This document shows, piece by piece, positions 27,901 to 33,364 of a stretch of DNA of 64,000 bases (position 1 is the first letter of the stretch; every line of letters starts with the position of its first letter). Origin of the DNA: Pseudogymnoascus verrucosus (taxonomy: Eukaryota); NCBI GenBank assembly GCA_001662655.1, contig KV460284.1, one strand, 5' to 3'. A program made the translations under genes and the position numbers. Below the pieces are notes generated by a model, which did not search any database, was not told the DNA's origin, and saw only the letters and a program-made list of their open reading frames with translations.

Positions 27901-30900
27901 ATGACCGACGATGCGGCACTTGCTGCTGCGACCGCCTACATTCAAAGCCTGGCCACCTCGCCCACAGGTCTTTCAGCCTTGAAAGCATCCCGTAAAGATG
28001 CAGACACTAATGGCATTGAAGAGATCCACCTGCCTGGCTCGTCAACGCCGGCCAAGCACGCCCTGGAGCGCGAGCTGACGTCGCTCGCCAAGCGGGTGCG
28101 CTTCCTGGAGTCCAACGCCGCCGCGTCCTCAAAGGACCACCTCATGCCCGATACCCCTAATGATAGCATCGACTCCTCCCCCGCCGATGACATTATCCCG
28201 ACGGCTTCGACGAGCGCCGCGCGCGAGAAGATCGTGTCGACGCTGCTGGCGTCGCGGGAGAGCCCGGCGGGGCAAAGCACAGTCACCTACACCAAGCTGA
28301 GCAGCGAGCAGCTGGAGGCGCTGCGCGAGCACGTTGACCACCAGTCTGGGCAGCTCGAGAGCCAGAAGCTCGAGCTTGCCAGCGTCAACGCACAGCTGTT
28401 GAGGCAGAAGCAGCTGCAGGAGAAGGCGCTCAAGGCCGTTGAGGTCGAGCGCGTCAATGCCCTCGAGCGCGAGCTCAAGAAGCATCAGCAGGCCAATGAG
28501 GCTTTCCAGAAGGCGTTGCGGGAGATTGGAGAGATTGTTACGGCGGTTGCGAGGGGTGACCTGAGCAAGAAGGTGCAGATTCACTCGGTGGAGATGGACC
28601 CTGAAATCACAACGTTCAAGCGCACTATCAACACTATGATGGACCAGCTGCAGGTCTTCTCCAGCGAGGTGTCTCGTGTGGCGAGGGAGGTCGGAACGGA
28701 GGGTATGCTTGGTGGACAGGCGCAGATTAGCGGCGTGGACGGGACGTGGAAGGAGCTGACGAAGAATGTCAACGTTATGGCGCAGAATCTTACGGATCAA
28801 GTGCGTGAGATTGCCGCGGTCACGACGGCTGTCGCGCATGGAGATCTTACGCAGAAGATTGAGAGGCCCGCGCAGGGAGAGATCTTACAGCTACAGCAGA
28901 CTATCAATACCATGGTGGATCAACTCAGGACGTTCGCAGCAGAGGTTACTCGCGTCGCGCGCGATGTCGGCACGGAGGGTATTCTCGGCGGGCAGGCAGA
29001 GATCGAGGGCGTCAAGGGCATGTGGAATACGCTGACGGTTAATGTGAACGCCATGGCGAACAATCTCACGACGCAGGTGCGCGATATTGCAATGGTTACG
29101 ACGGCTGTCGCCAAGGGTGATCTCACGCAGAAGGTGCAGGCCGAGTGTAAGGGTGAGATTTTCGAGCTCAAGTCTACGATAAATTCCATGGTGGACCAGC
29201 TGCAGCAGTTCGCGCGGGAAGTCACGAAGATTGCGAGAGAGGTCGGAACAGAGGGTAGGCTAGGTGGGCAGGCTACCGTGCATGATGTCGAGGGCACGTG
29301 GAGGGACCTCACCGAAAACGTGAACGGAATGGCCATGAACCTGACGACGCAGGTGAGAGAGATTGCAAAGGTCACGACTGCCGTCGCCAAGGGCGACCTG
29401 ACGGAGAAGATCGGCGTCGAGGTCAGGGGAGAGATTCTGGATCTGAAGATTACTATCAATACCATGGTGGACAAGCTGAGTATATTCGCCTTCGAGGTGA
29501 GCAAGGTGGCGCGAGAGGTCGGCACGGATGGTACGCTGGGCGGCCAGGCCAAGGTCGAGAATGTGGAGGGCAAGTGGAAGGACCTCACCGAGAACGTCAA
29601 CACCATGGCGTCGAATTTAACGTCGCAGGTGAGAGGTATTTCGACCGTTACGCAGGCTATCGCGAACGGCGACATGAGCCAGAAGATTGAGGTCGAGGCC
29701 GCGGGAGAGATCCTGGTGCTCCGTGAGACGATAAATAACATGGTCGACCGTCTGTCGATCTTCAGTAACGAGATCCAGCGCGTGGCGAAGGATGTCGGTG
29801 TTGACGGCAAGATGGGCGGTCAGGCAGATGTGGCGGGCATCGGCGGAAGGTGGAAGGAGATTACAACGGATGTCAACACCATGGCTATGAACTTGACGGC
29901 GCAGGTGAGAGCCTTTGGCGACATCACGAACGCGGCGACGGATGGCGACTTCACGAAGTTGATCACGGTCGAGGCGTCGGGTGAGATGGACGAGCTGAAG
30001 CGCAAGATCAACCAGATGGTGTTTAACCTGAGAGAATCGATTCAGAGGAACACGGCTGCCAGGGAGGCGGCCGAGATGGCCAATAGGACCAAGTCCGAGT
30101 TCTTGGCCAATATGTCCCACGAGATCCGAACGCCCATGAACGGTATCATCGGTATGACGCAGCTTACGCTTGACACGGACCTTACGCAGTATCAGCGTGA
30201 GATGTTGAACATTGTGCACAACCTTGCTAACAGTCTGCTCACAATCATCGATGACATCCTCGATTTGTCGAAGATCGAGGCGAACCGCATGGTGATGGAG
30301 GAGATCCCATACTCGGTGCGAAGCATCGTGTTCAATGCGCTCAAGACGCTCGCCGTCAAGGCCAACGAGAAGTTCCTCGACCTGACCTACCGCGTCGACA
30401 GCTCGGTGCCTGATCACGTCGTCGGAGACTCGTTCCGTCTGCGCCAGGTCATCCTGAACTTGGTCGGTAACGCCATCAAGTTCACCGAGAACGGCGAGGT
30501 CAGCCTGACGATCCGCAAGGCAGACCAGGATAACTGCGAGCACAACGAGTACGCCATCGAGTTCTCGGTGTCGGACACGGGTATCGGTATCCAGGCCGAC
30601 AAGCTGGATCTTATCTTCGACACGTTCCAGCAGGCTGATGGATCGATGACGCGTAAGTTCGGTGGTACGGGACTGGGTCTGTCGATTTCGAAGCGCCTCG
30701 TTAACCTGATGCGTGGTGACGTGTGGGTTAAGAGCACGTACGGCAAGGGCAGTTCCTTCTTCTTCACGTGCACGGTGCGCCTGGCTACGTCGGACATCAG
30801 CTTCATCGAGAAGGCGCTCAAGCCGTATCAAGGCCACCAGGTGCTGTTCATCGACAAGGGCGAGACGGGACACGGCAAGGAGATCAGTTCCATGTTGTCG

Positions 30901-32169
30901 CAGATTGGTCTCGAGCCTGTGGTTGTGGAGTCGGATAGCCACTCGGACCTCATGCAGGCGGGCCGCCCGGCCAACCACCCATCCAACTACGACGTCGTCA
31001 TCGTCGACTCTATCGAGACTGGCCGCAGACTCAGGTCGATCGATGAGTTCAAGTACATCCCTATTGTGCTACTGGCGCCTGTCGTGCATGTTAGCCTCAA
31101 GTCGGCTTTGGATCTGGGTATCACGTCGTACATGACGACGCCTTGCCAGACCATCGATTTGGGTAATGGTATGATTCCTGCGCTGGAGAACCGTGCGATG
31201 CCGTCGTTGGCGGATAATACGAAGAGCTTCGATATTCTGTTGGCTGAAGACAATGTTGTCAACCAACGGTTGGCGGTCAAGATCCTCGAGAAATACCATC
31301 ACGTCGTGACGGTGGTGGGTAATGGACTTGAGGCGCTTGAGGCCATCAAGCTGAAGAGATACGATTGCATCCTTATGGATGTGCAGATGCCTATTATGGT
31401 ATGTCCTCTCTAACCCCTCCCCCTTTCCATCCCATCCACCCTGGCAAAAAAACGATCCCCACCCCCCTCCCCACCCACCACGAAAAACTAACCCTAACCT
31501 TCTCCCCAGGGCGGCTTCGAAGCCACCGCCAAGATCCGCGAATACGAATACAACATCGGCACCACGCGCACCCCCATCATCGCCCTAACCGCGCACGCCA
31601 TGCTCGGCGACCGCGAAAAGTGCATCCAAGCCCAAATGGACGAATACCTCTCCAAACCCCTCAAGCAAAACCACCTCATCCAAACGATCCTCAAATGCGC
31701 CACCCTCGGCGGTCAGCTCCTCGAGAAGGGCCGCGAACCCCGCCAATCCACCAAAGAAGAGAAACCTACCAAGATCGGGCCGCCCGTCAAGGCGCCGCAG
31801 CCACTGAGCCCGCTCAGCCCCGGGGCCAAGAAGAAGGCGGAGATCAAGTCGGGGGGGAAGGGGAATATTCCCCTCGAAAACGGGGGGAGGTCAGCGCGCT
31901 CGCCGGCTGCGGCTGGTGCGAGCGCGAGCCCGGGACCGGGGAAGGGGGAGGAGGGAAGTCCGGCGAAGGAGGGTGATGATCCGCTTGCGAGGGTGAGTAG
32001 CGTTGCCGTTCGCCCCGCCGTGGCTGCCGCAGCTGCCAACGATCGCCGCCGCCGGGAGACGGACGCGGCGGCTCCGTCGGAGGCTGCGTCGGCTGCGAAG
32101 AAGAGGAAGGTTGGCTAATCTCTTGGGGTTGTTTTCTTGTAGTTGTTGATGCGCGCGCATGGTAGTTGA
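27901..32169 (+). CDS. NIK1: Group III hybrid histidine kinase (Nik1/Os-1/Bos1 type); exons 27901-31398, 31510-31992, 32143-32169
   Basis: Six poly-HAMP units at about 92-aa spacing; H-box [17 protein letters not shown]1/F/G2 boxes ([30 protein letters not shown]); degenerate plus intact receiver (LAEDN...LMDVQMP|GGFEAT...KP). The final intron GTGAGT(31993)...GCTAAT...TAG(32142) gives the C-terminus [13 protein letters not shown]. Confidence 0.95.
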
Positions 32170-33364
32170 AAGATGAAAAACTTGAAAACTGAACCCCTCT
32201 TTTGTTTTGGAAAAGGGGGGGGGGATGTTCTTTTTCTTGTTCTTTCTGGTTCGAGCGATTATTTTTCTACGAGCGAACGATACGAGACAACTTGTTATGG
32301 TGGGGGGAGGGGCGTTTTTATTCGAGACGAGGATGGGGAGGTTGATGGGGAGCAGGGCGTGCGTGCATGTCATCTGCGGGCGTTTTTTTGTTTGTCGAAT
32401 TTTCTGGCGGGGAAGGGATGGGGTGCGTGTTTGGTTTTTGAACCCCTTTCGAACAGGGGATATGGGAATGAAACGTTATGGGGTGGGCGGGGACTGGCTA
32501 CGGGGGTGGGGGGGTCTTTCACGCTTGCTATATTTCCCTGTGGTTATTTTTTGTTTGGTGTTAATGTTTTTTTGAACGAGTTTTTGTGCTGTTTGTTTGA
32601 GTGTTGTTCTTGCGTTGATGTTTGTTGTTTTTGTTGTTGTTGCTATTTTTGGATGATGAGGTAATCTAGGGGATGGATGGATGAGGGATGGATTATATAC
32701 CTGATATTAGTTGTGGTTGGCTCGTCTGAAGTGGGGAGGGGGTGGTTGGGATGAGATGAGATGAGATTGGGGATGTGGCATCTGCTTTTCCTAGCTTGAT
32801 GGTTCAAGAGGCTTTATGGCTCTGCGACGGGGAAGGGGCAGACAGATTATTGTACGGATTATTATGGGTTATATGGGTATATGGATGGATAGGGAATATT
32901 GAAATCGTTCCGACTACTTTCTTTTCTTTCTTCCATCCCCCTTTTCATTGTTGTGAAGCTCGTTCGTATCTTTCTCGTACTGTTTATCTAGAAGAGCGTG
33001 CGCGTATACGATCTCACTGCTTCCTTATCTCCACCCACCCACCACCAGCCAGTCAGTCAGTCAGTGTCAGTCAATCAGCCAGCTCTATATAACCCCCCCC
33101 CTCACCCTCCTCGTCTCATACCCCATAAGTGCTTATAGTGCGTGCTCGAATCTTCCAAACGCCATTTCCCCCGCCCCACTCCGCTCGTCCTCCCAAGACG
33201 TGTCAAGACGTGTCACTGCCAATCCCACACACACGGACAAAATCACGGCTCTTCCCTAACACCGACAAAAAAAAACGTGCTCACGTAAGACACCCTGCGA
33301 AAATCTCAAGCTAACCAGATCTGCGCTATTACGGCGTCTACAAGGTTTTCGGCGTGAGTAATAC

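Follow-up and report, generated by a model that had tools for sequence, protein, structure and literature searches.

A frame-conserved terminal intron in the NIK1 histidine kinase gene of Pseudogymnoascus and a candidate nuclear isoform of the kinase

The last intron of the group III histidine kinase gene NIK1 of Pseudogymnoascus verrucosus can be read as an in-frame continuation of the upstream exon, and across the genus this frame and two clusters of basic residues encoded in it are conserved. The two alternative C-terminal tails, spliced and read through, were both already in GenBank as automated models; the genus-wide conservation of the intron frame is new here. The codon-usage signature of the intron and the cross-species conservation of its frame and motifs lie well beyond chance. 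From comparison of the sequences, we consider that NIK1 probably has a real alternative C-terminal isoform made through intron retention, a judgment that we hold with middling confidence.

Gene identity and the terminal intron

The window analysed here is a 64,000-nucleotide stretch of P. verrucosus DNA (contig KV460284.1). By its sequence, it carries the gene for the group III hybrid histidine kinase NIK1/OS-1, orthologous to Bos1 and TcsC, as the first-pass annotation had called it. The spliced model is identical to the P. verrucosus protein XP_018125372.2 (P0255) at 1335 of 1335 residues. In this one polypeptide, Pfam places an array of HAMP domains N-terminal to the kinase core (HAMP, five stretches, E = 9.8e-43; HAMP_2, five stretches, E = 1.4e-39), together with HisKA (residues 731-794), HATPase_c (842-957) and Response_reg (1112-1226). 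Orthologues recovered by search include N. crassa Nik-1 (Q01309), a Botryotinia fuckeliana histidine kinase and the “histidine kinase osmosensor” of P. destructans, and it is by this orthology that a role in osmosensing and in sensitivity to phenylpyrroles and dicarboximides is predicted for the gene. The exons and introns are arranged as follows.

27901..31398, + strand: NIK1 exon 1, an ORF with its ATG at 27901 (junctions read from the sequence); N-terminal region, HAMP repeats, HisKA, HATPase_c and the first part of REC
31399..31509, + strand: NIK1 intron 1, 111 nt, GTATGT..CAG; ordinary non-coding intron, used as internal control
31510..31992, + strand: NIK1 exon 2, the end of REC and a disordered Pro/Ala/Gly/Lys-rich linker to ..KEGDDPLAR (from the alignment)
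31993..32142, + strand: NIK1 intron 2, the terminal intron, 150 nt, phase 0, 66% G+C, retainable and coding-like
32143..32169, + strand: NIK1 exon 3, LLMRAHGS followed by TGA; the canonical Leotiomycete tail

By its signals and its shared position, the terminal intron is a genuine spliceosomal intron, with GT..AG borders and a branch motif of the CTRAY type, CTAAT, 24 nt from the acceptor. The last codon of exon 2 is AGG (the R of DPLAR), with its final base at 31992. When the donor at 31993, the GCTAAT branch site, the TAG acceptor at 32142 and the splice product LLMRAHGS* were recomputed, all agreed with the first-pass annotation, and direct reading confirmed that the unspliced frame runs for 41 codons, through RRRR and KKRKV, up to a TAA (32116-32118) that overlaps the branch motif. 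The splice signals depart little from consensus. Within the intron we distinguish the following features.

31993..31998, + strand: 5' splice site GTGAGT; read as Val-Ser upon retention, and VS is present in all 18 read-through relatives
31993..32115, + strand: in-frame extension of 41 codons, seen from codon usage and in-frame conservation among relatives
32041..32067, + strand: conserved block DRRRRETDA, the first basic cluster, from the relatives' tails
32098..32115, + strand: conserved block KKRKVG, the second basic cluster, from the relatives' tails; fits K-K/R-x-K/R
32115..32119, + strand: branch-site motif CTAAT within GGCTAAT; branch A at about 32118, 24 nt 5' of the acceptor; contains the TAA at 32116-32118
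32120..32142, + strand: pyrimidine-rich tract and TAG acceptor, from sequence reading

In base composition, the terminal intron (66% G+C) exceeds intron 1 (57%), the coding sequence (58%) and the window (53%). Its length of 150 nt had been described as long for the window; as far as the comparison goes, this holds against intron 1 (111 nt; exactly removed, GT..AG, in an RNA contig of the relative X1) and against the intron at the same site in other Leotiomycetes. For the latter we fetched at least 72 metagenome loci, of which 14 passed the motif filters. In all 14, a gap that starts with GT comes immediately after DP[LI]xR and is followed by LLMRAH.., and the intron in these non-Pseudogymnoascus loci is 47-75 nt long and 32-51% G+C, with a stop usually within a few codons. 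The metagenome loci among the matches listed belong to distant Leotiomycetes or other fungi (at most 62% identity over the full match), and none is from Pseudogymnoascus.

Tails of the type LLMRAH[SG][SGTN] are found in Botrytis and many other Leotiomycetes. The B. fuckeliana protein (P0126) ends in DPLARLLMRAHSS, so that the likeness of LLMRAHGS to the end of Botrytis Bos1, as stated in the first-pass annotation, is correct. Short basic read-through tails also occur elsewhere in the class (VSRKKRKL, VSPATKRRRQR and VRKRRRRTSNVDS; 3 of 82, vs approximately 0.27 expected), which hints at more than one origin of such tails. The environmental ORFs that lack intron 1 comprise six in which intron 2 is spliced out and two (P0037 and P0052) that read through it; since some species may simply lack intron 1, such ORFs are not countable as RNA evidence.

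Conservation of the intron frame in Pseudogymnoascus

All 18 unspliced records of the Pseudogymnoascus clade that continue beyond DPLAR do so in frame to KKRK[VI]G, with no early stop and no shifted tail, and the read-through relatives all end directly after ..[VI]G. This is protein-level evidence, from ORFs and gene models whose very existence presupposes an open frame. Three blocks of the tail are near-invariant in the alignment: VSSVxV, DRRRRET[DN] and KKRKVG. DRRRRET is present in each of the 15 full tails from Pseudogymnoascus that differ from one another, with ETN instead of ETD in one, and KKRKVG stands at the extreme C-terminus in 17 of the 18 read-through records, the model of P0249 ending at KKRK. 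The more distant P0009 (67% identity) is without DRRRRET, yet it ends in ..KKRKIG. Part of this block conservation is explained by splicing itself, as VS corresponds to the donor and the final G with the stop to the branch site. In the same 15 tails the first spacer takes eight lengths (6, 7, 9, 10, 11, 12, 13 and 14 amino acids) and the second takes seven (7, 8, 9, 10, 11, 12 and 16 amino acids). There are at least 13 changes of tail length, and every one is a multiple of three.

Sequencing runs of relatives (X20, X1, X23 and X24) were aligned to the window at 80% likeness. In a DNA contig of X24 that covers 31927-32173 the net change is +12 nt, and the contig is alignable past the mini-exon to 32173. 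The controls behave otherwise: in intron 1 all nine listed indels are of 1, 2 or 4 nt (DNA of X20), in the 3'UTR both indels (2 and 4 nt) are non-multiples of three (X1), and where P0001, P0004 and P0251 read through intron 1, their frame is shifted against that of the window. The true coding linker just 5' of the intron is highly variable, unlike the blocks of the tail. ORF searches found no broken-frame ORF among close relatives, and no P. destructans ORF was found through its own C-terminal words. An alignment of the orthologous introns for frame and basic motifs had been proposed in the first-pass annotation as a check; both are kept in 18/18 unspliced clade records, vs the non-3n indels of the intron-1 and 3'UTR controls. 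At the protein level, the frame and its motifs appear to be under purifying selection across species.

The open frame in itself has little meaning and is not beyond chance. From the base composition of the intron, the probability of 41 open codons is approximately 0.36, and each of the two remaining frames is interrupted by a single stop; in a G+C-rich intron of low complexity, open frames are cheap. The codon usage is a different matter. The log-likelihood of intron frame 0 is 13.0 nats above that of the best off-frame, where real coding windows score 9.8 +/- 7.2 (n = 208) and none of 87 non-coding windows reaches 13.0 as the best of three frames. The frequency of A at third positions is 0.02, akin to that in exon 1 (0.06). 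The intron is both GC-rich and codon-like, as had been claimed.

Could the conservation have other causes? RNA structure was considered and rejected, the minimum free energy of -63.9 kcal/mol equalling that of shuffled sequences (-63.9 +/- 4.1; z = 0.00). Rfam gave no known RNA family in the intron (four chance-level matches, E = 0.62-0.93, all lie elsewhere), and Pfam gave no family in the 41-residue tail. A scan for bacterial-type promoters and terminators, irrelevant to a fungus, returned 0 sites. TRF found no triplet microsatellite. It did find a weak repeat (12 nt x 2.2) at 32066-32092, in the second spacer, which is too little to account for all of the in-frame indels; slippage may contribute. 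Ala/Val-rich tracts of GCN type may gain or lose triplets by slippage without selection.

These observations bear on the possibility that this is an ordinary, efficiently spliced intron whose blocks serve splicing or another non-coding role (an extended donor, branch context or an intronic enhancer), whose frame comes from triplet slippage and ascertainment, and whose retained transcripts are noise, giving no functional second protein. Two of the three conserved blocks do adjoin the donor and the branch site, but DRRRRETDA lies in mid-intron, far from the splice signals, and is invariant between spacers that change, and a signal of RNA structure is absent. The near-consensus splice signals favour efficient splicing, which counts against retention, and the RefSeq models are spliced. 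Against an ordinary intron, 47-75 nt suffice at the 14 other Leotiomycete loci. An open frame is expected by composition, with the other frames nearly open, whereas the codon signature is above that of the average real coding window and is equalled by none of the non-coding ones. The relatives came to light as ORFs or gene models, for which an open frame is a prerequisite, and the second spacer has its repeat of 12-nt period; yet the length changes of the tail are 3n throughout, against none of nine in intron 1 and none of two in the 3'UTR, and close relatives yield no broken-frame ORF. We regard an ordinary intron as a rather unlikely explanation.

Two C-termini and a candidate nuclear signal

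The read-through model has been deposited for at least nine strains or species (VKM F-103, WSF 3629, 03VT05, 05NY08, F-4517, 23342-1-I1, F-4519, P. australis and the ENA record P0254), and the spliced model for three (P. destructans, P. verrucosus and VKM F-4516), the first two of which are RefSeq. All three spliced models end in LLMRAHGS or LLMRATSS. No RNA run was listed as containing the stretch; every entry was a relative, with a share of at most 0.47. The RNA of X1 gave no contig with at least 31 nt on both sides of the junction 31992|32143, and none that covers 31840-32141. One 165-nt X1 contig aligns from the acceptor at 32142, with an upstream side of four letters, too short for a junction.

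With automated pipelines having picked the read-through for so many strains, and with a coding-like constraint on the intron that is the same evidence as for a retention isoform, the KKRKVG protein could be the main or only product in Pseudogymnoascus, the LLMRAHGS mini-exon a rarely used leftover, and homology the source of the spliced RefSeq models. However, the window shows no damage to the donor, the branch site, the pyrimidine tract, the acceptor or the 8-codon exon and its stop, the mini-exon peptide is kept in the three Pseudogymnoascus models and across Leotiomycetes, and the DNA of X24 remains alignable through it to 32173; the start of the X1 RNA alignment at the acceptor is a weak hint in the same direction. 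We find this reading improbable.

In the read-through tail, which is predicted from its composition to be disordered, KKRK occupies residues -6 to -3, fits the monopartite consensus K-K/R-x-K/R and is kept in 18/18 records. As a motif match, KKRK(VG) is a candidate classical importin-alpha nuclear localisation signal (NLS). The constitutive Pseudogymnoascus protein has as basic motifs only KRVR (64), KRK (700), RRLR (1042) and KKK (1273), and among 110 orthologues of at least 900 amino acids a C-terminal basic cluster is found in the Pseudogymnoascus read-through models only. The monopartite NLS of SV40 large-T antigen is PKKKRKV; it has KKRKV in common with the end of the tail, A-KKRKV-G, a resemblance of sequence only.

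It is also conceivable, though improbable in our estimate, that the tail is translated and its basic clusters serve not import but nucleolar or nucleic-acid binding, association with acidic lipids or membranes, recognition by a protease or the degradation machinery, or autoinhibition of the adjacent receiver domain: conservation supports translation and is silent on the motif's job, and the RRRR..KKRK spacer, acidic or Ala-rich and of 7-16 amino acids, is not of strict bipartite geometry, but an exposed C-terminal KKRK agrees with the classical monopartite consensus as used for TcsC, itself a precedent for a nuclear group III kinase (both as described in PMC11253588).

For the retention isoform, we propose the following. 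The gene would be the single group III kinase gene of P. verrucosus, and its last intron would have been inherited from a Leotiomycete ancestor. In the Pseudogymnoascus lineage the body of the intron would have gained approximately 100 nt of G+C-rich sequence, constrained as coding sequence in the frame that the upstream exon sets. Most transcripts would be spliced and end in LLMRAHGS, and a fraction would retain the terminal intron. The retained mRNA would escape nonsense-mediated decay and be translated; as the intron is terminal and of phase 0, with the read-through stop 51 nt 5' of the normal one, there is no downstream exon junction and escape is expected. The last eight residues would be swapped for a disordered tail of 35-45 residues bearing RRRR and a C-terminal KKRKVG, which would most likely direct nuclear import through importin-alpha as a classical and possibly bipartite signal, and one gene would supply nuclear and cytoplasmic pools of the kinase. 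The sequences themselves show the anatomy of the locus, its gene identity, the conserved frame and motifs and the coding-like use of codons; we infer the existence and translation of the retained mRNA, its escape from decay, import driven by the motif and any regulation.

In filamentous fungi, the HOG pathway is described as modulating splicing efficiency via SRK1 and SRP1 (PMC12232718). Because HOG acts on splicing, the switch could be a feedback loop in which the pathway's output re-localises its own sensor. It is tempting, if speculative, to suppose that in Pseudogymnoascus and the relative P0009 the terminal intron is a cassette maintained by selection, that splicing sets the nuclear:cytoplasmic ratio of the sole group III kinase, and that HOG possibly feeds back on its own sensor; we offer this extension tentatively.

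Searches found no literature linking intron retention to the NIK1 histidine kinase, and among the matches listed for alternative splicing in Pseudogymnoascus nothing was related by title and abstract. The words “histidine kinase” are absent from the main text of a paper on alternative splicing in Sclerotinia (PMC7749757). If the isoform is real, group III kinases would have a second way of residing in the nucleus, distinct in mechanism from the first, and the gene would be a rare case of fungal intron retention that yields a functional protein isoform and not noise. GenBank has two incompatible C-termini for orthologues within one genus, and some of these models probably describe a two-isoform locus only in part. 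Should the conservation be non-coding, the finding shrinks to an inconsistency of annotation.

Comparison with known systems

Phenylpyrrole and dicarboximide fungicides kill by way of group III kinases, which are also candidate targets for antifungals. The gene described here shares with Botrytis cinerea Bos1 and other Leotiomycete NIK1/OS-1 genes its domain architecture, a phase-0 terminal intron after DPLAR and a last exon of eight residues (..DPLAR-LLMRAHSS). Unlike the introns of the 14 non-Pseudogymnoascus loci, the one in P. verrucosus is 150 nt long, 66% G+C, coding-like and conserved in frame, and it encodes two basic clusters.

A parallel in the same kinase group is Aspergillus fumigatus TcsC, reported in 2024 as the first nuclear group III kinase; the question of localisation is a recent one (PMC11253588, PMC13452588). 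TcsC is described as nuclear by way of a basic N-terminal motif, to which the consensus K-K/R-x-K/R has also been applied, and the single change R129D makes it cytoplasmic (PMC11253588). A 2026 review asks if other group III members behave like TcsC (PMC13452588). The two systems have in common a short basic K/R motif on a group III kinase, which in TcsC sets nuclear vs cytoplasmic residence, with dynamic localisation; the TcsC signal, however, is described as constitutive and N-terminal (residues 127-137), whereas the candidate signal here is C-terminal and would be present only upon intron retention (PMC11253588).

Splice isoforms have been described in the same phosphorelay. The Ypd1 phosphorelay protein is alternatively spliced in Magnaporthe oryzae (Jacob et al. 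2015, as cited in PMC13452588) and, like the isoforms proposed here, belongs to the HOG multistep phosphorelay. It is a different protein, and what the review says of it carries no targeting-signal logic (PMC13452588).

Gain of a cryptic C-terminal targeting signal by alternative splicing in fungi is alluded to in the Sclerotinia paper (PMC7749757). The splicing logic proposed for NIK1 has a parallel in fungal metabolism. Freitag and colleagues reportedly described, in 2012, peroxisomal isoforms of fungal GAPDH and PGK that acquire cryptic C-terminal signals by alternative splicing. There, as proposed here, one gene has two C-termini through alternative splicing at its 3' end, and the extra tail bears a targeting signal (here a candidate one). 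In the GAPDH and PGK case the signal is a peroxisomal PTS1 on metabolic enzymes, whereas in Pseudogymnoascus it would be a nuclear signal on a signalling kinase, brought in by simple retention of a terminal intron.

The NIK1 locus and its terminal intron

The gene at 27901-32169 encodes a hybrid histidine kinase of group III (NIK1/OS-1/Bos1), because its product matches the Pfam families HAMP (five stretches), HAMP_2 (five stretches), HisKA, HATPase_c and the receiver domain, and its spliced translation of 1335 amino acids is identical at 1335/1335 positions to RefSeq XP_018125372.2/OBT91639.2 (P0255 in our protein search).

Features of NIK1
27901-31398, + strand: exon 1
31510-31992, + strand: exon 2, ending DPLAR
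from 31993, + strand: terminal intron donor GTGAGT
32115-32119, + strand: terminal intron branch motif CTAAT
32116-32118, + strand: read-through stop TAA, inside the branch motif
ending at 32142, + strand: terminal intron acceptor TAG
32143-32169, + strand: exon 3, LLMRAHGS and TGA
32170-32420, + strand: 3'UTR stretch with long G runs and T runs

On reading the sequence, every element of the first-pass annotation (DPLAR, GTGAGT, branch site, TAG, LLMRAHGS) lies where that annotation had placed it. The likeness to the Botrytis Bos1 C-terminus, which it had noted, is correct: Botrytis protein P0126 ends DPLARLLMRAHSS. The terminal intron (150 nt, 66% G+C, phase 0) holds 41 sense codons ending ..RRRR..KKRKVG before the TAA.

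How old is this intron? A metagenome scan for loci encoding relatives (at least 72 fetched; no Pseudogymnoascus DNA among the matches listed) supplied 14 comparator loci, namely those where our script could place the DP[LI]xR motif as well as an LLMRAH exon downstream. Each of the 14 carries an intron beginning with GT, exactly at the NIK1 terminal-intron position; these introns are 47-75 nt long (median 53) with 32-51% G+C, and a stop mostly occurs within a few codons. Since they share the position but not the length, the Pseudogymnoascus intron is the ancestral one with about 100 extra nt, its position old and its content new.

Constraint on the intron frame

The open frame of the intron alone is no evidence, because 41 stop-free codons are expected with P ~0.36 from its composition and the other two frames have one stop each. 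In codon usage, frame 0 is ahead of the best off-frame by 13.0 nats, with a table trained on 12 long window ORFs, one of them a source of noise as an antisense ORF of NIK1 itself. Genuine coding 41-codon windows average 9.8 ± 7.2 on this score (n = 208), and 0/87 non-coding windows reach 13.0, with the best of three frames counted. Third-position A is 0.02 in frame 0 of the intron and 0.06 in exon 1. The antisense ORF (29620-31068, - strand, 483 stop-free codons opposite exon 1) most likely arises from the sense gene's codon bias.

We searched a large protein collection with ORF 31510-32115, retrieving annotated proteins and ORFs called on relatives' DNA. Frame and KKRK, the features by which the first-pass annotation proposed to judge orthologous introns, are both kept: the 18 Pseudogymnoascus-clade records that read past DPLAR unspliced (P0001-P0009, P0121-P0123, P0125, P0242, P0243, P0245, P0249, P0254) are all in frame through to KKRK[VI]G, the P0249 model ending two residues short, and 0/18 has an early stop or shifted tail. 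We kept 15 distinct full tails, leaving out P0242 (same as P0002), P0249 (truncated model) and P0009 (without RRRR). The layout VSSVxV - spacer 1 - DRRRRET[D/N] - spacer 2 - KKRKVG is found in 15/15, while spacer 1 comes in eight lengths (6-14 aa) and spacer 2 in seven (7-16 aa). Each of the at least 13 length changes is a multiple of three; the naive one-in-three expectation for this, ~6e-7, is too optimistic because slippage in the Ala/Val tracts is triplet-biased. The more distant P0009 (67% exon identity, linker otherwise unalignable) still ends ..ASKKRKIG. In the protein alignment the intron-encoded blocks are conserved at least as well as the adjoining bona fide coding linker, itself highly variable. 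A DNA contig from a relative (run X24) over 31927-32173 is net +12 nt relative to the window, 3 of these being a CCC insertion in the exon.

Other parts of the same gene served as controls. In intron 1, the nine indels listed for X20, another relative's DNA, are 1, 2, 1, 1, 1, 4, 2, +1 and +1 nt. In P0001, P0004 and P0251, reading through intron 1 leads into a frame shifted against the window's; P0254 happens to stay open there. In the 3'UTR, a contig of X1, a relative's RNA run, departs from the window by just 3 substitutions and a pair of small deletions (2 and 4 nt) over 32142-32308. Judged at the protein level, with these internal controls included, coding-type constraint on the terminal intron is well supported.

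Could the conservation be non-coding or neutral in origin? Splicing signals account for part of it, VS being the donor and G-stop the branch site. The DRRRRETDA block lies mid-intron, distant from every splice signal; folding of the intron was no better than that of shuffles (z 0.00), Rfam gave no match, and Tandem Repeats Finder reported nothing beyond a weak 12-nt x 2.2 repeat. We consider such explanations rather unlikely.

Transcripts, gene models and tails in other fungi

The sequencing runs listed for the window included no RNA of P. verrucosus. In X1, intron 1 is cleanly skipped and no contig covers 31840-32141. A 165-nt X1 contig aligns from exactly 32142 onward and has four unaligned letters ahead of that point, compatible with a spliced junction though far below the 31-nt rule. 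GenBank NIK1 models within Pseudogymnoascus (P0121-P0125, P0241-P0250, P0255) have incompatible C-termini, at least nine reading through to ..KKRKVG versus three spliced (P. destructans L8GBS5 and P. verrucosus to LLMRAHGS, VKM F-4516 to LLMRATSS). The VKM F-4514 model has an aberrant end, that of VKM F-103 has 38 residues fewer than the window's model, and several other clade records are partial. Seven Pseudogymnoascus genomes were annotated by a single RNA-seq-assisted pipeline, as an extract of Palmer et al. (2018; PMC5750222) describes; despite such assistance, deposited models vary between read-through and spliced. Both tails are already in GenBank, as unremarked automated models. The model count would favor the read-through form as the main product, and the X1 alignment start fits splicing; we think it improbable that read-through predominates.

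Four consecutive K/R residues occur in 3/82 distinct read-through tails versus ~0.27 expected (crude shuffle, 14 comparator introns); basic tails encoded by this intron when retained may recur. The three are short read-throughs of the same intron in other Leotiomycetes (P0270, P0257, P0332) that end in basic clusters, VSRKKRKL, VSPATKRRRQR and VRKRRRRTSNVDS, each before a stop. In two environmental ORFs, P0037 (JGI) and P0052 (source 'merc'), the junction at intron 1 is closed and the terminal intron is read through (VSPQLQL and VSRFI, then a stop); these ORFs could represent terminal-intron retention in other species' transcripts, or DNA of species without intron 1. Six comparable environmental ORFs have both introns spliced. 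Sordariomycete orthologues (N. crassa Nik-1; P0205, P0167, P0199, P0232, etc.) end ..DPLSR-ARxSLSEPNIHxxx, not LLMRAHSS, and therefore the motif past DPL[AS]R varies by class. P0112 and P0116, two unnamed ORFs of Sordariomycete type, end ..PAGQKRKR.

A candidate nuclear isoform

Splicing of the terminal intron would give the canonical kinase; retention would swap LLMRAHGS for a disordered 35-45-residue tail with two basic clusters. The retained mRNA, with no exon junction downstream and an almost unchanged 3'UTR, should escape NMD, because this is the last intron and its stop lies 51 nt upstream of the normal one. By sequence, the KKRK found at the tail's extreme C-terminus matches the classical monopartite consensus K-K/R-x-K/R, and in combination with RRRR, which lies 7-16 residues upstream, could form a bipartite signal. 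Weak basic motifs are all that the constitutive protein offers (KRVR at 64, KRK at 700, RRLR at 1042, KKK at 1273). Among 110 orthologues of at least 900 aa, a basic-cluster C-terminus is confined to Pseudogymnoascus read-through models. Frame constraint would equally suit a translated tail with a function other than nuclear import, a reading we consider quite improbable.

The first-pass annotation had proposed a splice-switched nuclear isoform. That interpretation is supported in part: coding-type constraint on the intron holds, at the protein level and against internal controls, and we put about an even chance on NIK1 truly being a locus of two isoforms, one of them ending in an NLS-type tail. 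Functional intron retention and C-terminal targeting signals gained by 3' alternative splicing are already-known categories. No paper on an alternatively spliced group III kinase turned up in our literature search; excerpts of a 2026 review mention alternative splicing of M. oryzae Ypd1 (PMC13452588). According to part of another paper (PMC12232718), HOG MAP kinase signalling adjusts how efficiently introns are spliced, via SRK1 and SRP1, so feedback onto the NIK1 intron is conceivable, as pure speculation. In excerpts of a 2024 report, A. fumigatus TcsC is the first group III kinase described as nuclear, targeted by a basic N-terminal motif in which the single exchange R129D makes it cytoplasmic (PMC11253588). 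Whether other kinases of the family act like TcsC is a question raised in the excerpted review (PMC13452588).
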